10,492 nucleotides of DNA from Candidatus Thorarchaeota archaeon (GTDB lineage Archaea > Asgardarchaeota > Thorarchaeia > Thorarchaeales > Thorarchaeaceae): contig JAEOTX010000052.1 of NCBI GenBank assembly GCA_016839605.1, positions 1-10,492 on the forward strand, written 5' to 3'. This document shows positions 1 through 10,492 of the stretch, piece after piece. Both the position numbers and the translations under genes were made by a program. The notes under the pieces are model-generated. The model worked only from the letters and a program-made list of their open reading frames with translations, made no database searches and was not told where the DNA came from. Position 1 is the first letter of the stretch; every line of letters begins with the position of its first letter.

Positions 1-1886
1 GACATGAGATGATATACATCCTCATTCGGCATTCTGGAGAAGACAATCAGCATCTTTCCAACTTCATCAATCATGACTAATGATGTAGGAGTATACTCAA
101 GGAACGCGGTTGCGAGAGCATACACACTTCCAGGCGCTCCTTGAACAACAGTGAATAACGAAACAAGACCGGGCTCATCTGGCTGATAAACAAGATTCAG
201 GATATTCTTATCCTTGAACTGTGACAGAACCGATTTGATTTTGTTCCTAGTCAGACCCCAATAGTCCATGAGTTTCTTGTCCTCAAGATCAGCCAAGTAA
301 ATAGTTCTCGCAGCGGCGTCAAGTACCTTGGCCTCATTCTGATCAATTTGATGTATTTGTGTTCCTTTCCATTTTCCATAACGTGATCTAAGTTTACGCA
401 TTGTACCCTTTCTTGAAATGGACTCCACAATCTTGTCTGTAGAAGTCTTCCATCCCTTATTGGTGTCAAAGAGACCGTGATTAGCAACCCGAGCGGACCA
501 AGCAACATCCATCACGTTGGGTAGCACTCTTCGGACTCGTTCTGCAGAATGCGGCGGCATTTGCATGACCTGGAGGTAAGGAGGAGGGGGACTCTCTCCC
601 AACTCTCCCAGTCTCGTGATCCAGGCCATGTGTTTATGAGGCCACCTGTGCGCCGATCCAAAATACGCCATTGTATGAAGGCCGATTGCGTGTGTCTTGA
701 TATGCGCACGTAGCTGCACACCGGAACATAACAGAGCAAATCGGTTAATCCATGCCTTTGTACTGCGTTTTGCTTTTGACCTACTTACAGGCAGCGAATT
801 GGCAACCTTGTCAGAGTGATCGAGATCAACAATGAACTTCCTTACACGACCATACCAACTTGGAAACAATGCACATACTTTGTCCCAGAATAACAACCAC
901 GGTGTCTTCTCAGCCAGTGTGGGTGATGGTCGATCTGGGAGTTCCAGTTGTCTTTTCTCTGCTAAATTCATGAGTCGAACATATTGTGGGGGCTCTACGC
1001 CATCGATTACACACTGAATATGCCCCATGATGAGCGCTCTTAGAGTTGGAGTGGCGTTTAGTCCCCCAAAGAAATCCACAGGATCAACTTTGGGAATCTC
1101 TCGCTTCGTAGTCCAAACGAGAAATGCCATCAGTTCCTCGCGAACATCTGATGGAAATGATAAAGGAATCAAGGGTTCCAATGACTCCCGCATGTCACTA
1201 CCGATTTGCAAATCTGGTATTACAACACCCTTTGTCAGTTCCACAATCTCTTCCCAAGGAGGTGGCGATCCTTTAAGCATCCGCAGTGCATTTTCTCTCG
1301 CTCTTTCAGGATCTTCTTGACCGAAGTATCTGTTCATAGACCTATTTAGCTCCCATTCCTCCTGTAGTTCCAGGACCCCACCCTCATAATTCTGAATCAT
1401 ATGGCTTTCATAAATCGTGTCCGAATTGCTATCAGAAATCGTCAGCCAATAATTCTGGTTGTTCCTTACTGGCTGGACTGTGAAGATTGCCTCCTCTTCG
1501 CCGCCTAGGACTCTGCCATACCATCCTCCAGTAGAAGGGGGCCAAAATGGATCGGGCATTTGTCCCATCCCTCGTGAGTAAGGTTTCCGCGCTATAAGCT
1601 TCGGTCTGAGTGATACTTCGGTTTTCTGGTCGAGTGGGTCCACCTGACTTCTTCCATCCTCGCCTACAACAATTGAAACCCTTGTAGTGAAATATTCGTC
1701 CGACGAACCAGCATGGATTACTTCACCAGTAATTGATCTTATCAACACCTCATCTGATGATATTACTAGTTCACTTCTCTCACCTGAACTGCTGAAGACA
1801 GGCAGGCTTGTGAACCTAGTCCACTCTCTCAACCAGCTACACACTCTTCCCAAGTCAGACTTTGGGTCGAATATTAGATTATCCAT
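1..1886 (-). CDS. Large hypothetical protein (>628 aa, 3' end outside the window), with a possible wHTH plus Lrp/AsnC-like region near the window edge
   Basis: Manual translation gives an uninterrupted frame from ATG at 1886 (MDNLIFDPKSDLGRVCSWLREWTRF...) to the window edge (...MLIVFSRMPNEDVYHLM). The nearest upstream in-frame stop is at ~1944-1946. It is absent from the ORF track because it has no stop in the window. The late segment EAKVLDAAARTIYLADLEDKKLMDYWGLTRNKIKSVLSQFKDKNILNLVYQP resembles a wHTH; that domain call is inference. Confidence 0.85.
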   Translation of the reverse strand, partial: MDNLIFDPKSDLGRVCSWLREWTRFTSLPVFSSSGERSELVISSDEVLIRSITGEVIHAGSSDEYFTTRVSIVVGEDGRSQVDPLDQKTEVSLRPKLIARKPYSRGMGQMPDPFWPPSTGGWYGRVLGGEEEAIFTVQPVRNNQNYWLTISDSNSDTIYESHMIQNYEGGVLELQEEWELNRSMNRYFGQEDPERARENALRMLKGSPPPWEEIVELTKGVVIPDLQIGSDMRESLEPLIPLSFPSDVREELMAFLVWTTKREIPKVDPVDFFGGLNATPTLRALIMGHIQCVIDGVEPPQYVRLMNLAEKRQLELPDRPSPTLAEKTPWLLFWDKVCALFPSWYGRVRKFIVDLDHSDKVANSLPVSRSKAKRSTKAWINRFALLCSGVQLRAHIKTHAIGLHTMAYFGSAHRWPHKHMAWITRLGELGESPPPPYLQVMQMPPHSAERVRRVLPNVMDVAWSARVANHGLFDTNKGWKTSTDKIVESISRKGTMRKLRSRYGKWKGTQIHQIDQNEAKVLDAAARTIYLADLEDKKLMDYWGLTRNKIKSVLSQFKDKNILNLVYQPDEPGLVSLFTVVQGAPGSVYALATAFLEYTPTSLVMIDEVGKMLIVFSRMPNEDVYHLM

Positions 1887-2202
1887 GCATGTACTGCATA
1901 CTGCTTCAGCGGAAATGTGGGACGAGAGCAGTGAATCTATATTTCAATGCCCAACTATTTTGCTACCATGGTTCAGGGCTAAATGGTCGGCCTGGATGCT
2001 TTGAGTTCATTTTATTGCTCACCTACACGGGATTGTTCTGAAGCATCGAACGTTAACTTCCGATAGGCGAATTGTACAGACAGTCTACTATGAATTGACG
2101 AAAATTTGCATCTGAGGGCCTTATGGAGGCATATTTCTGAGTGGCCTTTATTACACCCACTAGGAGAATGACTTGTTTGCCGTGCAACAAAAAAGACGCA
2201 GC

Positions 2203-3072
2203 CTAAGAACCGTCTTTACCTGTGCTGATTCTTCTCAATTTATGCAATGGCAGCTTAATTCTTCCAGTGGTATGCAATACTGCTAGCGCAGAAAATGTGA
2301 AAAATGACCCCAAAAGCATAACCGCTACAACTGCATCAAAGACTACAAACCATGGTGCCGCACCCTCCAGAGTTGCTGTGAAATAATCTGTACTGGAGGT
2401 ATATGTCACGCTATCTGAATCTAGAAGAATGGCTTCCCTAGGTTCAAGCTCATTGTTGTACTTCTCTAGTCTCACTTGGACTTCCTCTTCCGAAACGAGA
2501 ATCTCGGAACCATCTTCCATCACAAAAATGAGTCCTGAGAAGACGAAAGTGCCTCCGAACTCAGAGATATGTGATGCAGCAGCATCATCATCAATAGTGA
2601 TTGTTATCGCTGCCAATTGACCATCCCCAATTGTATCATTGAGCATGAACATCGGAGAAATCGGAAGTAAATCATGCGGGTACCCTGCACTGTCACGCCA
2701 TTTTGGATAGAATGCAATATAATCTGCAATTACGCTGCTAACCACTGGTCGTCCTAACATAGTCTTCCCATAATAGAATCCCACAAGGGCGTACATGTTA
2801 TGTTGGCTGTAGTATGGGTCACTTGCTGTATTTGGTGTCTGCTGTGAGTGTATGTATGTGACTTTGAATGTAGCACGCATTAAGAATATCTCTACTCCGT
2901 CCTCGAGTCGGAATGTCAGTCTATAACCGAACTCGTCTATAGTCCTTCTACTCAAAGCCGGGATTAGATTGTGATTGCGATTGCCAGCAGCATGAGCCGC
3001 GGGGAGCATGATCCCTGGAATCACCATTAGCATGATGAATGCCAACGTCAAAGGACGTGCTATCCGAGCCAT
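2203..3072 (-). CDS. Hypothetical single-pass membrane/surface protein (signal peptide plus C-terminal TM anchor), ~289 aa
   Basis: From the likely start at 3072: basic N-region MARIAR, hydrophobic stretch PLTLAFIMLMVIPGIMLP and an AHA-A cleavage-like site. The C-terminus has a hydrophobic helix (WFVVFDAVVAVMLLGSFFTFSALAVL) and a basic tail (RIKLPLHKLRR). An alternative start lies at 3111. Confidence 0.8.
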   Translation of the reverse strand: MARIARPLTLAFIMLMVIPGIMLPAAHAAGNRNHNLIPALSRRTIDEFGYRLTFRLEDGVEIFLMRATFKVTYIHSQQTPNTASDPYYSQHNMYALVGFYYGKTMLGRPVVSSVIADYIAFYPKWRDSAGYPHDLLPISPMFMLNDTIGDGQLAAITITIDDDAAASHISEFGGTFVFSGLIFVMEDGSEILVSEEEVQVRLEKYNNELEPREAILLDSDSVTYTSSTDYFTATLEGAAPWFVVFDAVVAVMLLGSFFTFSALAVLHTTGRIKLPLHKLRRISTGKDGS

Positions 3073-3176
3073 GATAACGAATCTACTCCAACATTGGAAA
3101 GGACTACCCATAGCTAAAAAGTGGTTGTTATCTGAGCAATTATGGTAAAAGGAAAAAACTAGCAGTACCCAATTGA

Positions 3177-3192
3177 CGAAAGGTTCTTAACA
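3177..3192 (+). promoter_or_regulatory. Putative archaeal BRE/TATA promoter of tRNA-Trp
   Basis: CGAAAGG followed by TTCTTAA, with the TATA-like part about 28-33 nt upstream of the mature tRNA 5' end. This fits a BRE-TATA arrangement with a short leader. Confidence 0.55.
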
Positions 3193-3217
3193 CGTTCTAG
3201 CTCATGACCCTCGATTC

Positions 3218-3355
3218 GGGGCGGTGGCCTAGTCCGGTATGGCGACGGGCTCCAGATCTAGGCGCATTTCGCGTCTGAACAGCGGGGTCAATACGCTGAC
3301 CGTCGTCGTAGAAGATACTCGTCGATCGTGGGTTCGAATCCCACTCGCCCCACCA
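3218..3355 (+). tRNA. trnW: tRNA-Trp (CCA) with a 61-nt intron at canonical position 37/38 and an encoded 3' CCA
   Basis: Acceptor stem GGGGCGG (3218-3224) / TCGCCCC (3345-3351). D arm GCC..GGC. Anticodon stem ACGGG (3245-3249) / CTCGT (3318-3322), loop CT-CCA-G|A with anticodon at 3252-3254. T arm GTGGG-TTCGAAT-CCCAC. Discriminator A plus CCA at 3352-3355. Confidence 0.95.
3256..3316 (+). other. tRNA-Trp intron (relaxed bulge-helix-bulge junction; two CTGA box D-like motifs)
   Basis: Removing 3256-3316 restores a 7-nt anticodon loop. The central helix CUCC/GAAG has one mismatch. CTGA occurs at 3275-3278 and 3296-3299. Confidence 0.85.
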
Positions 3356-3508
3356 ATATCTCCTTACCCAATCCTTGGCTGCTGCACCAAGCATTTGAGA
3401 AATATATTCAGCTTCGAGTCTATTTCAGATTGGTCCATTCATCTTGTGTAAGAGTGTCTAATTCTAATGAGCATAATAGTGAGTAGCCATACGAGTTTAT
3501 GGTTGACG

Positions 3509-4837
3509 ATGGTGTATGAATCAAAAGATGATGATAACAAGCGCGAATACATTCATGACATTCTCCCGAACAGAGGACGTCAAGTAAGCCATCATCAATA
3601 TCAATACCACCTTCGCACATCTTTCAGTTCAATCAACAAAAAAGAGCAAATCTGTCCTAATCTCATTACAGCATATAGTCAACAGTTTTTCTATTTCAAA
3701 TCCCCAAAGGAATTGATAAAGCGTCTGCGAGATACATGCGAGAACCTTGGAATTGACGGGAATGACATCCTTCTACGTCTTAATGAATTGCTGAAAGAGA
3801 TGCAATCAAAGAGAACTATGTTTGCAGGCAATGAGGCCAACCCAATTAATCCAAGAAATGGAAGAATCAAAGGTGAATCTTTAGGGTTTATCATGGAATT
3901 GTTGGGTGAGTCAATTCAGGATCTAGAAGGGGAAATTAGTAGAATTACTGGCGTGAATGGTCAGGGAGGCCTTCTAGAGCCTCGGTTTCCGGATGAGAAC
4001 CAGCTACTTGTTGTCCTGACAAGATTATATTCAGCCATGGCTAGTGATGGCCACATAAGAAATGAGTCAGGGAAAGGAGAGTATTACGACCCCAAAATCA
4101 GCAGAATTGAGAGGGTAATTGAGAATCTGAATGAACTTGGTCAAATCAAATCCAGAATCATTGAGAAAACAAGAGGAATGTATAGACTTCACATACCTAG
4201 TGTTGTCGGATCTCTACTACTTCTGATTGGCTTTCCTATAGGGGACCGTACTATGCAGAATAAGGGACTCTCTCCATTCATTGTTGAAGGGCCATCAGAG
4301 GTTCTGATTGCATATCTAGAAGAAATGGTGCCGGAAGAAGGATGTTTCAATAATACAACTGGGATATCTTGGAATAGGACACATTGCATCTATGGTCCTG
4401 GAAAAGCTGGGAAAAAGTATGAGCAACCTTCGTTATCCAAAGAGCAAGCAGATTACATCAAGAAAATTGCATCTGATACTGGTGATACAAAAGATAGGAA
4501 GACTCTACCTTGGAGCGAGCTCGTTTTGAAGGCTGAAGATGGTAATGAAATAGCAAAGAGTATAGCGGACTTCGTGAATAACAATCCAAATCAGCTAATC
4601 AAGGATGAGGTAAGAATTGCAGGACGTTTGGGGATCGAAGTTGATGAGGGACCTTATCGTTTAAGGTACTACAAGAAAACAGGAAGAATCACATTTGTTA
4701 CATCCGCCAGGACTAAGAGCTTTGATGATGCGGAGAGATGGGGTCAGATTTGCCCTCCAAATGATGTAGAGAAAAGGAAGAAGATGCTGAATTGGCTAGC
4801 AGGACGAAAAGGCATAGTGAGTGCTTCAACAGATTAG
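3509..4837 (+). CDS. Free-standing LAGLIDADG-like (double-motif, intein-endonuclease-like) protein, ~442 aa
   Basis: Motif 1 is RLYSAMASDGHI (4022-4057). Motif 2 is AYLEEMVPEEGCF (4310-4348), about 97 codons later. Motif 2 is preceded by GFPIGDRTMQNKGLSPFIVEGPSEV, which resembles the 'G-K...IP-I...AFL-G...DG' linker of intein LAGLIDADG domains. No Hint/splicing motifs are visible. The start is 3509 (MVYESK) or 3467. Confidence 0.7.
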   Translation: MVYESKDDDNKREYIHDILPNRGRQVSHHQYQYHLRTSFSSINKKEQICPNLITAYSQQFFYFKSPKELIKRLRDTCENLGIDGNDILLRLNELLKEMQSKRTMFAGNEANPINPRNGRIKGESLGFIMELLGESIQDLEGEISRITGVNGQGGLLEPRFPDENQLLVVLTRLYSAMASDGHIRNESGKGEYYDPKISRIERVIENLNELGQIKSRIIEKTRGMYRLHIPSVVGSLLLLIGFPIGDRTMQNKGLSPFIVEGPSEVLIAYLEEMVPEEGCFNNTTGISWNRTHCIYGPGKAGKKYEQPSLSKEQADYIKKIASDTGDTKDRKTLPWSELVLKAEDGNEIAKSIADFVNNNPNQLIKDEVRIAGRLGIEVDEGPYRLRYYKKTGRITFVTSARTKSFDDAERWGQICPPNDVEKRKKMLNWLAGRKGIVSASTD

Positions 4838-4862
4838 GAATCCTACCCCATCCGCCCCACCA
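4838..4862 (+). repeat. Second copy of the tRNA-Trp 3' end (attR-like remnant)
   Basis: GAAT-CCTAC-CCCAT-CCGCCCC-ACCA versus the tRNA's GAAT-CCCAC-TCGCCCC-ACCA. It starts immediately after the ORF's TAG stop (4835-4837). Confidence 0.8.
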
Positions 4863-4867
4863 TTTTT
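4863..4867 (+). terminator. Oligo-T tract, putative archaeal terminator (plausibly the original tRNA terminator)
   Basis: TTTTT directly follows the CCA of the downstream copy. No T-tract follows the upstream copy. Confidence 0.5.
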
Positions 4868-4891
4868 AGTCCTGCAGCGAGCAGTCGAGAG

Positions 4892-4899
4892 TATAATAA
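4892..4899 (+). promoter_or_regulatory. Putative TATA box for a leaderless rnhB transcript
   Basis: TATAATAA ends about 24 nt before the ATG at 4923 and has purine-rich GAGAG upstream. Confidence 0.4.
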
Positions 4900-4922
4900 G
4901 CAAGATAGAATGGTCACATAAC

Positions 4923-5612
4923 ATGAGCAGCAAGGGGGACATCTTGGAAGGAGTAGCCGGGGTCGATGAAGCGGGCCGAGGACCAATGATAGGGCCCCTC
5001 GTTGTTGCTGGTGTCTTAATCCAAGAAGTTGAACTGGCGAAGCTTGAAGCCAGCGGAGTAAAGGACTCCAAGACACTCACCCCAAAACGGAGGGGCATAT
5101 TGGCAGAAGTGATTACCGGACTTGTTGACAAGATTGAGATACGAACTGTGACAGCAGCCGAGATTGACCGACTCAGAGGTAGAGGTATTTCTCTCAACGA
5201 GATTGAGGTTCAGCAGTTCGTTTCAGTACTTTCAAAACTTAATCCAAAGACCGCTTTTCTTGATGCAGCAGATGTCAAAGCAGAGAGATTTGGGGACACT
5301 ATTGGAGACCGGAGTGGACTTACCGCGCTTGGATGCAAAATCATCTCAGAACACAAAGCAGATTCAAAGTTCCCAATCGTGTCAGCCGCATCAATTATTG
5401 CCAAAGAGGAGCGAGAGCGCATTGTTTCACGTCTGCACCGGAAATATGGGGACTTTGGTTCTGGTTATCCCTCAGATCCCAAGTCCATAGATTTCATCCG
5501 TTCACTAATCGAAGACGGAGCAAAGGTACCGTCAATCGTGAGACAGAGCTGGGAATCTGTCAGAAGACTTCAGAATGACGCAGATACAACACAACAGACG
5601 CTTGATGTCTAA
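4923..5612 (+). CDS. rnhB: Ribonuclease HII
   Basis: Motifs GVDEAGRGPMIGPLVVAG, GVKDSK, LDAADV, EHKAD..PIVSAASIIAK..R and DFGSGYPSDP. The C-terminal QQTLDV resembles a PIP box. The likely start is ATG 4923 (MSSKGDIL), not GTG 4821. Confidence 0.97.
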   Translation: MSSKGDILEGVAGVDEAGRGPMIGPLVVAGVLIQEVELAKLEASGVKDSKTLTPKRRGILAEVITGLVDKIEIRTVTAAEIDRLRGRGISLNEIEVQQFVSVLSKLNPKTAFLDAADVKAERFGDTIGDRSGLTALGCKIISEHKADSKFPIVSAASIIAKEERERIVSRLHRKYGDFGSGYPSDPKSIDFIRSLIEDGAKVPSIVRQSWESVRRLQNDADTTQQTLDV

Positions 5613-5616
5613 CAGG

Positions 5617-6576
5617 TCATTCCGACCGTTCATTGATTATCTTTTTCAGTTCACGAGGTTCGTCTATCTCCTCAAGCTCCAACTGTCTGATAACCGGCAG
5701 GTCTGAAACGGCCTCTTCGGTCTTGCCCTCTTCTACAATGATTACTGCATCTGACTCTGTGACCTCAGAAACGCTCTTGAGAATATCCACTCGCTTTTTC
5801 AGAGCCCGGCTCCTGATTGAACCAACACCTGACATCAAGGGTGGGCCGACTTCTTTTGCGATTATGTGGAATGGAGCTCTATCAGTCCACATTACGCTCA
5901 TCTCCAGCTTCTCAAAGAAGTCGTTAACTCGTTGGGCAAGGTCCACATTTTCTATAGGCGCTTTTGTCTGAGGCTGATCCTTAGGAATTGCTACAGAACT
6001 TAGCAAATCCACAGGAATTATGAGGTCTGTTTCCAGTTCCCTCTCAAGTTTCTCGGCTGCCTCAACACTGACTGCCATCTCATTCTTCTCATAAGCCAAG
6101 ACCGCCCTGGCCGACACCTGAATACAGTCAGCCAGCTCCTCCTGGGTCATGTTCAGGGAAAGTCGAACTTCCTTCAGTTTCTCACCATCTATTGATACGA
6201 ACCGCCCTCCGCGTTGAATAAACTCTCGGGGCTGCTGCTCTTCAACAATCATACTCTCAAAACTATGAGGTGCAATGGTTGGAACACCATACCTCCTGTA
6301 TAACACGCCGTCGTCAAGAGCCCCTCTCCGTGTAGTCCTACCCACAATCAGTGGTATGGCATCGAAAAACTGGGCTACGAGCTGCAATACGATGGCATCA
6401 TCCTTCTTGAACGCATCAATATTAGCAAGTGTCTTGACCAGGATAATCTTGTCACCCCTTCGGGCAACCATGTCAAAACAGCTTGGCCTGACGTCACACT
6501 GCGATGAGATATCGAACCCAGCCTTCACTAGATGTGATGTGACCTCTTGTATTAGCTGAGTTCGTGCTTTGGTCAT
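5617..6576 (-). CDS. Archaeal Cro/C1-type HTH transcriptional regulator (COG1395-like)
   Basis: N-terminal RPSCFDMVARR..IILVK..NID and GVLYRRYGVP, then RGGRFVSIDGEKLKEVR..LNMTQEELADCIQVSARAVLAYEK (XRE HTH), and C-terminal DRAPF. Confidence 0.9.
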   Translation of the reverse strand: MTKARTQLIQEVTSHLVKAGFDISSQCDVRPSCFDMVARRGDKIILVKTLANIDAFKKDDAIVLQLVAQFFDAIPLIVGRTTRRGALDDGVLYRRYGVPTIAPHSFESMIVEEQQPREFIQRGGRFVSIDGEKLKEVRLSLNMTQEELADCIQVSARAVLAYEKNEMAVSVEAAEKLERELETDLIIPVDLLSSVAIPKDQPQTKAPIENVDLAQRVNDFFEKLEMSVMWTDRAPFHIIAKEVGPPLMSGVGSIRSRALKKRVDILKSVSEVTESDAVIIVEEGKTEEAVSDLPVIRQLELEEIDEPRELKKIINERSE

Positions 6577-6658
6577 TGTTTGGACCTAAGGTTTCATCTG
6601 CCTTTGAAGGTTTTTAGCAATTGCTGATTGTGAAAAAACTCGGTAGTGGAGATACTTC

Positions 6659-7102
6659 CTACTCATTTTCTACAGAAGTGACAAAACCAACGCATGATGT
6701 AGATGGCAATTTCTGTCTTATTGCCTGCACTTGAGGACGCATCAGCTTCTCAATCGGCTTCCATTTCTGAAAATTGGTCCATTCTAGGTCAACATATCCT
6801 AGCAAATGATGGACCAGAAAGAGCTCTGGTTTCCCTCCGGCAATGGTATAGATTCCAGTTCCATAGTCCATTCGTCGCAGAATCACTATAGGCAGTCTGA
6901 TTTCATCATGGAATCTTGGAGGCACTTGACTCACAAGTTCAGATATCTCCTCTTTTTTGAGGATAGATTTTTCGCCATTTCTAGTCATATAGTGTGGGTC
7001 ATCAGATCTAGCCAACTCCCTCAGACTGAATCTGGTTGCTGGCATATGGTCATTTATTGAGTCAATCTCATGCTGTACTATCTTGTCAATTGGTGGAGTC
7101 AC
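6659..7102 (-). CDS. DUF61 / UPF0216 family protein
   Basis: The pattern EIDSINDHMPATRFSLRELA..DPHYMTRNG...EEI..L...P...IRLPIVILR matches DUF61 as recalled. The GTG start at 7102 overlaps the fibrillarin stop (GTGA) and has GGAGG upstream. Confidence 0.8.
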   Translation of the reverse strand: MTPPIDKIVQHEIDSINDHMPATRFSLRELARSDDPHYMTRNGEKSILKKEEISELVSQVPPRFHDEIRLPIVILRRMDYGTGIYTIAGGKPELFLVHHLLGYVDLEWTNFQKWKPIEKLMRPQVQAIRQKLPSTSCVGFVTSVENE

Positions 7103-7800
7103 ATCTGGTCCTCCGTGACACGGCACACCACGAACCTATGATCCTTTTCCAAGGGGTCAAGGGTAACATTCTCAATAACCTCAAGGCCCTGGTCATCTAA
7201 TGTGGCTATCTCGCTGCTATAGATTTCATCAATCGGCGCTGCTGAATCAATACTTCTTGCTTTGATAGCAATCAATCCCCATGCACCAAAACCGCAGAAG
7301 ACCCTGATATTGTCAATTAAAATTCGGGCTTGATGTGGCTGGGCAATGTCCTGATAGACCACATCAATTGGTCCAGCTACGAACGGAGCATACTTTGTAG
7401 GGTGTCTGGCGTCCTCGATAATTGGAACAATATTACTGCGGGACTCAGCCAGCTGCAGGAGTCCTCGAGCTGTTCGTGCTGAAAACTCGACTGCATAGAT
7501 AACACCCTGGGGGCCTACTATATCTGAGCAATGGCTTACTGTAGTGCCTGATGCAGCTCCAAGATACAAGACTCGCGATCCCGGCTGGATTGGCATCTCT
7601 CCGACCCCCTTCTGAATAGCCGCAGCGAGCTTAGACCTTCGTGGATTCCAAATACGAAAGTCACCCTTTTCCTCGATGGTTAAGACTTTCTCACCGTAGA
7701 CGCTCTGTCCGGGAACAACACTCCGTGTAGCAAGAGAGGATTTGGCTTTGTCACCAATCCGGAAGACGCCAGGAAACCTATGATTCTCCACAATGGTCAT
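7099..7800 (-). CDS. flpA: Fibrillarin-like rRNA/tRNA 2'-O-methyltransferase
   Basis: Motifs VYGEK, RIWNPRRSKLAAAI, VLYLGAASGTTVSH.SDIVG, YAVEFS, NIVPIIEDARHP, DVVYQDIAQP.QA, IKARSID and LDPLEKDH. Confidence 0.98.
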   Translation of the reverse strand: MTIVENHRFPGVFRIGDKAKSSLATRSVVPGQSVYGEKVLTIEEKGDFRIWNPRRSKLAAAIQKGVGEMPIQPGSRVLYLGAASGTTVSHCSDIVGPQGVIYAVEFSARTARGLLQLAESRSNIVPIIEDARHPTKYAPFVAGPIDVVYQDIAQPHQARILIDNIRVFCGFGAWGLIAIKARSIDSAAPIDEIYSSEIATLDDQGLEVIENVTLDPLEKDHRFVVCRVTEDQM

Positions 7801-9047
7801 TGTTTCTTGCCTCCTCGTTTCTTCTTCTGATTACCACGAGATCTCCCCCGCTTTGACGGTTTCTTAGTGAATTTCTTTGCAGGCTTTGGCGGAGGTTCTT
7901 CAGCATTCTGCCTTTGAATCTCACTCACTCTTTCAAGGAACTTCTTCTTGAGTTCCGTTCCAATATTTCTCTTGGAATACGCATCAATACGTGCCGCAAT
8001 TGAGATTTTCCCTGCCAACGCTCTTGCAATCTTACCCCTTTGCCAATAGGGGGCACTATGAATTTCAGGAACCTGATAGATGATGCCATGTTTTGGCGGG
8101 TCTGTTCCAGTCTTCAGACTTCGAAACAACGCCTTTTCCGCGCCATAGATTTGGACTGTGCTAGAGGGCTTTTTGGCTAAGTCTATCAATGATCCTGCAA
8201 GGCTGATTAAACGGGCTCCCACCAGTGGGCCGACGAGAGTAGTTATGTTAGGCGCAACAGATTCCATAATCTGGCCAACATATTCCTCAATCTCGCGTCT
8301 CTTGACATAAAGGGTCTGAACGGTGTTCGCCAAGCTTTGTGCAATAGACAAATCGTTGGTTTCGAAAGGTGCCCCTAGGTCTCTGAGCATTGCATTCATA
8401 ATACTTTGAGCTTGCTGTTCTGGAACTCCTGCTTTGGACAGACAATCAATTTCGATTTTTGAACGCTCTCCACAATTGCTCACCACATTAGCAAATACCT
8501 CATGCTCCTCTACTAAATCATTCAAAGAAGGATGGTGAAGCGAGTACCATTCTCTCAGTCTCATCGCTAGAATGTTGATGGACCTATCAACTTCACCGAT
8601 TGCATCTATTGCATGTTTCACGAGAAGGTCTTTCTCTTCACTAGCGGCAGTTATCGCTGCCCGAGAGATATGAATAGCCACCTCTCTTCTAAATGAAGCA
8701 ATGCCTTCCTTCTCCTTCAGAAGGCCCGATTCCAAGAGATACGTGTCTTGAGTATCGCGGAAGGACTTGAATACAGTTGATGTTTCATTCACACTTACTG
8801 GAACTTGAGTCAAGCTGGACAGAGCGCGGCTTACCATCCCGTTCTCAACTACAACACTCTCGACTCCAAGACTCGCTAATTCCTTAGCTATGTTCCCTAA
8901 GCAGTCTGTAGGTTGTCCTTCTCCTAGAATGGCGAACTCGGAAGATATCGCTTCCACGTCAGGGTATACAACCTGTTCTGAGATGACCTTCCCCTTCTCA
9001 TCAAGTAAGAAGAGACCAAAGCTGGTGAGGACTAGATGGGCTATCAA
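7797..9047 (-). CDS. nop5: Nop5 (Nop56/58) box C/D RNP core protein
   Basis: Motifs RLREWYSLHHP, APNITTLVGPLVGARLISLAG, PSSTVQIYGAEKALF, PPKHGIIYQ and RGKIARALAGK..IAARID, with a K/R-rich tail. TTG start; ATGA overlap with flpA. Confidence 0.97.
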   Translation of the reverse strand: MIAHLVLTSFGLFLLDEKGKVISEQVVYPDVEAISSEFAILGEGQPTDCLGNIAKELASLGVESVVVENGMVSRALSSLTQVPVSVNETSTVFKSFRDTQDTYLLESGLLKEKEGIASFRREVAIHISRAAITAASEEKDLLVKHAIDAIGEVDRSINILAMRLREWYSLHHPSLNDLVEEHEVFANVVSNCGERSKIEIDCLSKAGVPEQQAQSIMNAMLRDLGAPFETNDLSIAQSLANTVQTLYVKRREIEEYVGQIMESVAPNITTLVGPLVGARLISLAGSLIDLAKKPSSTVQIYGAEKALFRSLKTGTDPPKHGIIYQVPEIHSAPYWQRGKIARALAGKISIAARIDAYSKRNIGTELKKKFLERVSEIQRQNAEEPPPKPAKKFTKKPSKRGRSRGNQKKKRGGKKQ

Positions 9048-9170
9048 TCTGTTCTTCCCCGAGCTTGATTGACTACTCGTGAGTCGGATAAGTTTAGTGT
9101 TAGGCCACGTTTACCAGCTGCCGTCTACCTTATTACGAGATAACCGCCAAATTAGCGCCTAGGTGCTCTC

Positions 9171-10037
9171 TTGAAGATACAAGGATATTGGCTTGCTTCA
9201 GGGATTCTGGGAGTCACCAGTTCTACTCTACGTCGTGTACATGAGTCGGGAGCAGATGCTGTCGTCACGAAATCTATAGGTCCTAGACCCAGAAAGGGAC
9301 ATCCCGGACCCATTTTGGCTACTTCTCACGGCGGATTACTCAATGCAGTAGGTCTGACAAATCCTGGTATTGATTTTTTTGCGGAGGAAATGGCTGAACT
9401 CAAGAAGAGTGGTGTTCCAATTGTCCTCAGCATCTTTGGGAACTCGCCTCAAGAGTTAGCTGACGTGGCATCCAAAGGAGTAGAGATGAAGCCGGAAGCG
9501 ATTGAGCTCAATCTATCCTGTCCTCATGCTGAAATTGCGCAGATTGCTCATGACCCCAACCTCACACATGAATATGTGAAGGCCGTCAAGGAAGTCGTCG
9601 AGTGTCCTGTATTTGCTAAGATCACTCCAAATGCCTCTGATATTGTTGCAGTGGGAATAGCTGCAGAAAAAGCTGAAGCCGATGCTATTGTGGCAATCAA
9701 CACTGTACGTGCCATGAAGATCGACATTCACCAGAGGCGTCCTGTTCTAGGGAACAAAGTAGGTGGCCTATCTGGCCCTCCTGTATTTCCAATCGCTGTA
9801 AGATGCATATACGACCTTCACAACTCACTCTCAATACCCATCATAGGTGTGGGAGGAGTGACCGCATGGCAGGATGCCGTGGAGATGCACCTTGCTGGTG
9901 CGAGTGCAATTCAAATTGGAACTGCAGTGATAGATGGATTAGACGTGTTTGGAGAAATCAAAGAAGGCGTTCTGAATTATCTCAAAGCTGAAGGATTCTC
10001 ACAGGTGTCTGACATAGTGGGTCTAGCAGGGAGGTGA
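9171..10037 (+). CDS. pyrD: Dihydroorotate dehydrogenase, catalytic subunit (family 1B)
   Basis: Motifs LASG, VVTKS, NAVGLTNPG, ELNLSCPH (catalytic Cys), KITPN, AINT, GGLSG, IIGVGG and GASAIQIGTA. TTG start with AGGTG upstream. Confidence 0.96.
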   Translation: MKIQGYWLASGILGVTSSTLRRVHESGADAVVTKSIGPRPRKGHPGPILATSHGGLLNAVGLTNPGIDFFAEEMAELKKSGVPIVLSIFGNSPQELADVASKGVEMKPEAIELNLSCPHAEIAQIAHDPNLTHEYVKAVKEVVECPVFAKITPNASDIVAVGIAAEKAEADAIVAINTVRAMKIDIHQRRPVLGNKVGGLSGPPVFPIAVRCIYDLHNSLSIPIIGVGGVTAWQDAVEMHLAGASAIQIGTAVIDGLDVFGEIKEGVLNYLKAEGFSQVSDIVGLAGR

Positions 10038-10043
10038 TCAGTC

Positions 10044-10492
10044 TTGAATCTTGATAGACTAATGGGCCGACCAAAATCTGTGAGAATCAATGATATGGTG
10101 GAGGAGAGCGACAAGACTCGAACAGTCAGATTCAGCTACCCATATGATGACATCGAGTTTCACCCAGGCCAATTCATGATGATCTGGGTACCAGGCGTTG
10201 ATGAGGTTCCAATGAGCATTTCATACTGGAATCTTCCTGATGTAGGAGTGACAGTAGCACCAATTGGCGAAACTACTAAAGCTCTGGCCTCATTGGATGT
10301 TGGACAGCTAATCGGAATACGCGGTCCATTTGGCACATCTTTCAAGACGAATTCTAAGAATGCACTTGTTGTTGGAGGTGGTATTGGGATGGCCCCGCTA
10401 AGACCACTGACCTATGAACTTCTTAGCCAGAATGTGCAGGTGACACTGCTTATTGCTGCCAAAACAAAGGGCGACCTGGTCTATCTGAAGGA
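10044..10492 (+). CDS. pyrK: Dihydroorotate dehydrogenase electron-transfer subunit (partial, runs off the window)
   Basis: Manual translation gives PGQFMMIWVPGVDEVPMSIS, GIRGPFG and LVVGGGIGMAPL. GAGGTGA (10031-10037) is an SD-like motif before TTG 10044; an alternative ATG lies at 10062. The gene follows pyrD directly. Confidence 0.93.
   Translation, partial: MNLDRLMGRPKSVRINDMVEESDKTRTVRFSYPYDDIEFHPGQFMMIWVPGVDEVPMSISYWNLPDVGVTVAPIGETTKALASLDVGQLIGIRGPFGTSFKTNSKNALVVGGGIGMAPLRPLTYELLSQNVQVTLLIAAKTKGDLVYLK

Follow-up and report, generated by a model that had tools for sequence, protein, structure and literature searches.

An insertion in the 3′ end of an archaeal tRNA-Trp gene with a LAGLIDADG nuclease gene as its sole gene

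We have analysed a 10,492-nt stretch of DNA (the window; contig JAEOTX010000052.1, assembly GCA_016839605.1, positions 1–10,492) from a Candidatus Thorarchaeota archaeon, in which a tRNA-Trp gene is followed by a single open reading frame (ORF) encoding protein P0001, by a second copy of the tRNA 3′ end and by rnhB, the gene for RNase HII. On balance, we favour the reading that positions 3356–4846 are a mobile insertion into the T-arm/acceptor part of the tRNA-Trp gene, made without a recombinase and with the gene for a LAGLIDADG nuclease as its sole gene, and that it would have entered by a nuclease break and its repair. The case for this rests on the exact borders of the insert, on natural empty sites in relatives, on the fold of the encoded protein and on the attachment of a larger family of such nucleases to tRNA 3′ ends.

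The insertion and its empty counterparts

A reading of this DNA from its letters alone (hereafter the sequence-only reading) had proposed that the tRNA-Trp 3′ end occurs twice some 1.5 kb apart, and this was borne out by our analysis. The 16-mer at 3340–3355 is repeated at 4847–4862 with 14 of 16 positions identical and both copies on the + strand; the chance expectation for such a match is 0.01, and none with two mismatches was seen in 200 shuffles. The GAATCC of 3336–3341 is likewise repeated at 4838–4843, so that the downstream copy is a 20-nt tRNA end with a 5-nt filler, TACCC (4844–4848). The proposal that the stop codon of a single ORF abuts this remnant also held, since the TAG at 4835–4837 is followed directly by GAATCC, then by the five extra bases, the last two of which overlap the 16-mer CCCATCCGCCCCACCA, and then by a T-run.

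The tRNA-Trp gene itself is recognized by Rfam as a single tRNA at 3218–3352 (RF00005, 48.2 bits, E 5e-8), with anticodon CCA, a 65-nt insertion (intron) after the anticodon loop and a gene-encoded CCA that ends at 3355. No other tRNA-Trp was found in the assembly, and the acceptor 11-mer occurs in a tRNA context solely at the 3218–3355 locus. ARAGORN in its default mode missed this gene because of the intron, and its intron option over-called and misnamed several tRNAs; tRNAs were therefore verified with Rfam and by eye.

To compare occupied and empty alleles, we obtained the tRNA-Trp locus from 19 related genomes. Empty sites, which the sequence-only reading had said should be sought, were found in five genomes of the same genus (G015, G005, G014, G002 and G011), where rnhB lies ~60 nt after tRNA-Trp with nothing between, and two of these read exactly ...GAATCCCATCCGCCCCACCA before rnhB. 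Four contigs (the window, L005, L006 and L007) are occupied, with the ORF between tRNA-Trp and rnhB, and no larger, integrase-bearing island, of which the insert might have been a decayed remnant, occupies the site in any relative. In a BLAST comparison of the window with the empty sites, the pieces that match to the left and to the right of the insert share exactly the duplicated 16 nt, and the spacing of 60 nt from remnant to rnhB start equals that from tRNA to rnhB in the empty sites.

Two alleles of the tRNA-Trp end occur among the relatives, CCCACTCGCCCCACCA in the majority and CCCATCCGCCCCACCA in G015 and G005. They differ by a C/T swap at the adjacent positions 65/66, and each keeps both pairs, one Watson–Crick and one wobble. 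The working tRNA of the window has the C65/U66 allele and the remnant matches the U65/C66 allele at 16 of 16 positions; on this comparison, the two ends are two natural alleles and not a copy and its decayed duplicate. As both 16-mers are functional ends in relatives, the insert must have brought one of the window's two copies with it. The remnant still lies 60 nt from rnhB, as the tRNA end did originally, and has retained the T-run; it is therefore the remnant that represents the displaced resident end.

The insert has a GC fraction of 0.38–0.43 against 0.45–0.51 in the flanks, and its DNA has no second copy in this genome. Its 111-nt left end (3356–3466) has no counterpart in the empty sites (L010–L014) and is conserved in L005. 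A repeat search showed no terminal inverted repeats of the insert. An insertion-sequence-like repeat was also considered as its source and ruled out, because the insert DNA occurs once in the genome.

Relatives of the ORF at 81–83% identity are carried by four metagenome contigs, and in the three of these that were examined (L005, L006 and L007) the ORF is found at the same locus with the same remnant before rnhB. In L005 and L007, conservation of the remnant is confined to its last 13 nt, and the spacer from stop codon to remnant varies from 2 to ~57 nt among contigs sharing the insertion. In comparisons with L005 and L007, respectively, the ORF shows a synonymous divergence (dS) of 0.32 and 0.67, and rnhB one of 0.34 and 0.81; the dS of the ORF thus matches the flanks in the first comparison and is somewhat lower than the flanks in the second. 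The ratio of non-synonymous to synonymous divergence (dN/dS) of the ORF against the same two contigs is 0.16–0.26, indicating purifying selection. The shared locus, the flank-like dS and the low dN/dS together show that the insertion is older than these lineages and that its gene has been maintained in working order. A search for related loci based on P0001 returned nothing in genome contigs and one distant fragment in metagenome contigs.

Short fragments of the same nuclease family also lie near tRNA-Trp in two other genomes, at 8971–9228 of L080 (G024:C2) and 7597–8055 of L081 (G003:C15). They stand 0.25–2 kb beyond the upstream neighbour gene of tRNA-Trp, the tRNA-Trp/rnhB-like junction being empty in both genomes, and may be relics of older elements in the tRNA-Trp neighbourhood.

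The LAGLIDADG nuclease and its family

Residues ~60–456 of P0001 form a conserved family module of ~385 amino acids (aa) with a monomeric, two-motif LAGLIDADG core, and residues 1–60 are lineage-specific. A model calculated with AlphaFold2 (AF2) from an alignment of 54 members reached a predicted local distance difference test (pLDDT) score of 92.7 and a predicted template modelling (pTM) score of 0.90. The top 50 Foldseek matches to this model were all LAGLIDADG proteins, and VIA-align superposed 165–191 residues, with Z values of 15–18 and a root mean square deviation of 2.2–3.0 Å, on the TliVMA and PI-PfuI intein endonuclease domains, I-Tsp061I, I-DmoI and WhiA. In addition, the family profile aligned both LAGLIDADG motifs to the TliVMA intein endonuclease with an E value of 0.013. 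The catalytic position of motif 1 is Asp in 53 of the 54 members; that of motif 2 is Asp in 42 and Glu in 12, and hence acidic in all 54. From the modelled fold, we therefore confidently regard the ORF product as a LAGLIDADG nuclease with both catalytic acids kept, in agreement with what the bare sequence had suggested, and by its conserved acids the nuclease family, unlike WhiA, looks catalytically competent.

Pfam (E<=0.01) and NCBIfam scans of P0001 returned no family and no relevant match, LAGLIDADG models included. With no match to a curated model and a profile match at E 0.013, the sequence family is uncatalogued and the fold is clear. The PDB also gave a sequence match to IpaD (E 0.01), which we dismissed as fortuitous; it involves the N-terminus, which is not conserved.

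The known enzymes I-DmoI, I-Tsp061I, PI-PfuI and the Thermococcus VMA intein endonucleases share this core fold (Z 15–18), with two LAGLIDADG helices in one chain, and I-DmoI has a D/E catalytic pair, as D194/E291 in the window protein. These known enzymes sit in rRNA introns or inteins, whereas that of the window is encoded by a gene of its own and has additional domains at its N- and C-termini.

An exhaustive search yielded 282 representative clusters in the nuclease family, more than 150 members of which align end to end with P0001 residues ~60–456. The conserved module is usually the C-terminus of acidic proteins of 500–1600 aa. It is present in 54 of 121 related genomes, in up to nine copies, with many fragments at contig ends. 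Four family copies occur in the genome studied here. One of these forms the end of an acidic protein of 1119 aa, upstream of which a membrane protein of 1042 aa with a Walker A motif is encoded, and another is a 244-aa C-terminal fragment that lies 14 nt from the 3′ end of tRNA-Glu(TTC), in convergent orientation (L004, G000:C106:33628-36122, 1300–2340). This tRNA-Glu fragment is flanked on its other side by three degenerate clustered regularly interspaced short palindromic repeats (CRISPR; ...GGATTGAAAC), and the four spacers of this C106 remnant match their own locus only among the sequences fetched.

In 20 neighbourhoods of 20 kb, the recurrent unit began with a membrane HerA-like ATPase (PF01935), which was followed by the nuclease protein and, downstream of it, by a ~200-aa protein that belongs to no known family, with both the ATPase and the ~200-aa partner present at ten of the 20 loci; neither of them is in the window, as judged from its ORF list and Pfam. 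The nearest relative of P0001 is P0008, an 893-aa long form with 71% identity, which is preceded by a 773-aa unannotated gene in the ATPase position. Because the nearest relative is a long form, the minimal state of the window is probably derived, and its nuclease gene is probably, on this sequence evidence, a reduced derivative of an ATPase-coupled long form. No trace of the N-terminal 498 aa of P0008, sought as a sign of a long-form ancestor in situ, was found in the window or the genome. The idea of a free-standing minimal cassette thus stands in that the gene is alone here, but not as a one-off, since this is a short form within a large family of ATPase-coupled giant proteins.

The linkage of homologues to tRNA genes, which the sequence-only reading had put forward as a test, was also found: family members are associated with tRNA 3′ ends, and the islands they belong to terminate in another fragment of a tRNA 3′ end. 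At seven of ~47 distinct loci, the nuclease stop lies 0–21 nt from a tRNA 3′ end, in convergent orientation, where by our own estimate from tRNA density fewer than 0.1 loci would be expected by chance. These seven loci involve tRNA-Ala(GGC) in five genomes of three genera, tRNA-Glu in the present genome and a tRNA-Lys-like gene in G064. Elsewhere, the module lies just downstream of tRNA-Leu or tRNA-Thr, or is parted from tRNA-Asn solely by the small partner gene. No second copy of a tRNA end was found within ±10 kb of the other tRNA-adjacent copies, nor in L051 after tRNA-Thr; those belonging to the G018 and G049 islands lie farther out, at 12 and 25 kb.

Related islands and the setting of the window

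Two complete islands at tRNA-Ala show how larger members of the group are built. The 12-kb island of G018 runs from tRNA-Ala through the nuclease, the ATPase, a leucine-rich-repeat (LRR) protein, a STAND-TPR NTPase and others to a 48-nt tRNA remnant, which is a copy of the tRNA 3′ half but of a different allele, with compensatory T-stem changes. The 25-kb island of G049 starts from the same tRNA-Ala with the nuclease and the ATPase, continues with defence-type genes (a deaminase, two Schlafen/AlbA_2 proteins, and Mrr-like and NucS-like nucleases) and ends in a 39-nt remnant of a different allele, beside which the last 34 codons of an older nuclease gene are kept. The flanking proteins of G049 and G018 are 95–97% identical, whereas the nucleases at the same tRNA are only 56% identical; the island has therefore been replaced recently, the incoming one again bringing its own tRNA 3′ part.

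Three further observations concern tRNA-Ala. In L201 (G062:C9), the intact tRNA-Ala end at 27–77 is followed by two 44-nt copies of its 3′ part, at 1167–1210 and 5487–5530, both of which start at the same anticodon-loop base and are preceded by AAT. These tandem remnants look, from their arrangement, like serial insertions at one tRNA, and no nuclease or ATPase homologue was found between them. In L202 (G046:C19), two halves of tRNA-Ala(GGC), at ~2174–2211 and 2754–2795, are ~540 nt apart and split at the canonical intron site after the anticodon loop, representing either an unusually long intron or an insertion. Orthologous tRNA-Ala(GGC) introns of differing lengths are present at non-canonical sites in the D-arm region in L073 (10694–10800), L062 (8441–8577) and L072 (9075–9182); such D-arm-region introns of related genera defeat the ARAGORN and Rfam filters.

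The sequence-only reading had recognized no integrase or transposase in the insert, and our scans agreed with this. No recombinase or transposase was detected in the insert by Pfam or NCBIfam, and PF00589, the sole family searched genome-wide, had no match in the whole assembly of 3.08 Mb, which is 80% complete. In G061, G049, G018 and G063, PF00589 matched solely on contigs without family copies. The 12-kb and 25-kb islands showed no recombinase or transposase in their Pfam-scanned ORFs of at least 90 aa, most ORFs having been scanned and several not; serine recombinases were covered solely by these Pfam scans of island proteins.

The coordinates of the insertion and of its neighbours are collected in Table 1. 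Relatives of the window's Nop5 place the host in Candidatus Thorarchaeota, an Asgard lineage, and Pfam identifies ordinary host genes around the insertion, namely RNase HII, a helix-turn-helix (HTH) protein, DUF61, fibrillarin, Nop5 and dihydroorotate dehydrogenase. The rnhB promoter region begins immediately 3′ of the tRNA remnant. Two host ORFs on the − strand, one of 628 aa at 3–1886 (open at the window edge) and one of 302 aa at 2203–3111, had no Pfam or NCBIfam match, and the latter gene is kept beside tRNA-Trp in relatives. Directly after rnhB lies a 319-aa HTH_3 protein (5617–6576, −), the L007 homologue of which also carries a recorded PDDEXK_19 nuclease domain. The tRNA-Trp gene (3218–3355, with its ~65-nt intron) is 4 kb from the fibrillarin–Nop5 operon (7099–9047). 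A box C/D guide RNA is encoded within the tRNA-Trp intron of Euryarchaeota; in the intron of the window, no clear C box was apparent on inspection by eye.

Table 1. Features of the insertion and its surroundings (window coordinates)
Feature	Position	Strand	Basis
tRNA-Trp(CCA) gene, ~65-nt intron, encoded CCA, intact	3218..3355	+	Rfam RF00005
Functional tRNA 3′ end, allele GAATCC-CACTCGCCCCACCA (C65/U66), read as insert-borne copy	3336..3355	+	Functional in G014, G002, G011 and most of the genus
Insert left end, 111 nt; hairpin 3375–3392; A/T-rich TATA-like stretch ~60 nt before ATG	3356..3466	+	Sequence inspection
456-aa ORF P0001	3467..4837	+	Starts 111 nt after tRNA-Trp
LAGLIDADG motif 1 (…LYSAMASDGHI…), catalytic Asp194 codon 4046–4048	4016..4057	+	Alignment to TliVMA motif 1
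LAGLIDADG motif 2 (…AYLEEMVPEEGCF…), catalytic Glu291 codon 4337–4339	4307..4348	+	Family alignment
Right junction, GAATCC (T-loop remnant) and TAC of filler TACCC, directly after stop	4838..4846	+	Comparison with empty-site allele GAATCCCATCCGCCCCACCA
Displaced resident tRNA 3′ end CCCATCCGCCCCACCA (U65/C66) and its T-run	4847..4867	+	16/16 identical to functional end of G015, G005
rnhB (RNase HII), host gene outside the element, marks right host flank	4923..5612	+	Pfam PF01351, E 1e-47

Mechanism, alternatives and significance

We propose that the nuclease, or a long-form ancestor working with the HerA-like ATPase, would make a site-specific break in the 3′ region of the tRNA gene, and that host recombination or end-joining would then mend the break on an element-bearing template. 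The element would bring its own, slightly different but functional tRNA 3′ end, so that the tRNA stays intact. The resident 3′ end would then lie 1.5 kb further downstream, together with its terminator and the promoter of rnhB, and persist there as a dead sequence. Both the imported allele and the 5-nt filler of the right junction are consistent with a T-arm break repaired in this manner, and the allele differences may protect the occupied site from renewed cutting. We regard nuclease-initiated, repair-mediated insertion as the most economical mechanism, and the insert of the window as the smallest version of the element, made up of the nuclease module, a short leader with a promoter and a tRNA end that replaces the resident one. 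By a bolder extension, which we offer as a tentative suggestion, the LAGLIDADG nucleases of this family might be the integration engine of integrase-free Asgard tRNA islands, acting by break and host repair with a cleavage-resistant replacement 3′ part; from the window, the nuclease module and the tRNA end might then be the only parts that must travel together.

Several of our own results weigh against this mechanism. Cleavage, the target site and gene conversion are all predictions, and in the clade of the window the co-divergence of the ORF with its flanks points to vertical inheritance and not to ongoing homing. At approximately 85% of the ~47 family loci, no tRNA lies closer than 400 nt to the nuclease stop. 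The ORF of the window is co-directional with its tRNA and abuts the remnant, whereas the family norm is a convergent gene that abuts the intact tRNA. In addition, the nearest relative, P0008, is a long form whose contig has no tRNA-Trp remnant. Finally, the remnants begin at the T-loop or anticodon loop, positions which Williams, in 2002, reportedly described as the classic crossover sites of tyrosine integrases; the anatomy alone thus leaves a recombinase acting in trans as the main rival.

This rival, which we think unlikely, is that of classical site-specific integration, in which a recombinase of the tyrosine or another type, its gene lying elsewhere or having been lost, inserted a circular element via an attP that copies the tRNA 3′ end, and the LAGLIDADG gene is cargo or the last survivor of a decayed island. 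Such an origin would account for the sharp and repeated starting points of the tRNA 3′ repeats, at the T-loop in the window and at the anticodon loop or stem in G018, G049 and G062, which are typical att sublocations, and the tandem remnants of G062:C9 resemble serial integrations; the long form of the nearest relative likewise implies that gene loss happened in this lineage. It sits poorly, however, with the failure of PF00589 to match in the assembly or on the family-copy contigs of four other genomes, and with the lack of any recombinase or transposase among the Pfam-scanned ORFs of the two complete islands, several ORFs being outside those scans. Moreover, across several different tRNAs it is the nuclease gene that holds the tRNA-adjacent place usual for integrase genes, and the right-junction filler suits repair better than conservative recombination.

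A second alternative, which we hold to be slightly less likely still, is that a conflict or defence module, comprising the HerA-like ATPase, the nuclease and the small partner, rides in tRNA-linked islands, and that the nuclease of the window is a domesticated or orphaned effector, inserted by an unrelated process. The three-gene module is conserved at many loci, the island cargo is of defence type (STAND-TPR NTPase, Schlafen/AlbA_2, Mrr-like and NucS-like nucleases, deaminase), the majority of family loci have no adjacent tRNA, and the purifying selection and vertical inheritance in the clade of the window suggest a benefit to the host. However, this explanation does not account for stop codons 0–21 nt from the ends of several different tRNAs, or for a cleanly bounded 1.5-kb insertion that holds this nuclease alone, with neither the ATPase nor the partner gene in the window; and the nuclease has been swapped between 97%-identical hosts at one tRNA, which shows that the unit itself is mobile. 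That there is no mobile element at all, and that an ordinary lineage-specific gene is enclosed by a locally duplicated tRNA end or by a chance match, is highly improbable, for although several further 16–19-nt imperfect repeats occur within the same 2 kb, only 0.01 matches are expected by chance, the remnant is a natural allele at 16 of 16 positions exactly where the tRNA originally ended, five relatives have empty sites and the family is multi-copy and patchy.

Among known systems, nuclease-driven insertion as proposed here has a close anatomical parallel in fungal mitochondria, where free-standing homing-endonuclease ORFs lie between a gene and a partial 3′ duplicate of it, for example in cob and atp6 of Endoconidiophora resinifera (PMC6279837). 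The order of intact host gene, endonuclease ORF and displaced 3′ fragment is the same; unlike the fungal cases, the target in the window is an archaeal chromosomal tRNA gene, the duplicate is 16–20 nt, and the family also heads cargo islands of 12 and 25 kb. The SegB protein of phage T4, a free-standing GIY-YIG homing endonuclease encoded in a tRNA gene cluster, drives the preferential inheritance of its own region (PMC2330249). It resembles the window in being a free-standing endonuclease gene among tRNA genes, but differs in its nuclease fold and phage setting; tRNA 3′ ends are neither duplicated nor replaced by it, and it builds no chromosomal island.

The sequence-only reading knew of no such system in archaea. 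This needs qualification, as Wu et al. (2022, PMC8813620) described HeimM2 of Ca. Heimdallarchaeum, with a homing-endonuclease homologue and a leucine-rich-repeat protein beside a tRNA, and suggested that the former was co-opted for site-specific integration. By that description, HeimM2 is likewise an Asgard element with a tRNA-adjacent endonuclease homologue, and the G018 island also carries an LRR protein; it differs in being a single 8-kb case between a 16S rRNA gene and tRNA-Arg, without analysis of tRNA-end duplication, empty sites or a family. In our literature search, we found no paper on the present nuclease family, its ATPase partner or tRNA-end replacement. Islands and proviruses made by tyrosine integrases at tRNA genes (PMC8371274) show an intact tRNA at one end, a 3′ repeat at the other, an element-supplied 3′ end and tandem accretion, all as here; in contrast to them, no tyrosine recombinase was detected for the present elements, whether in the insert, in the assembly or among those ORFs of the two islands that were scanned.

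The window offers the cleanest test object for these ideas, with one gene, exact borders and natural empty sites, and of its two natural tRNA alleles, one may represent the target and the other the immune form. The enzymes of the family would be new meganucleases, predicted to have long targets and to be aimed at conserved tRNA sequence.

Textbooks attribute the integration of islands into tRNA genes to recombinases. If a nuclease and repair can yield the same anatomy, integrase-based island finders would miss this class of element, and some islands taken to be integrase-less and decayed may have been misread. Such Asgard elements move defence genes and remodel tRNA loci, and they therefore bear on gene flow in the lineage nearest to the eukaryotes.

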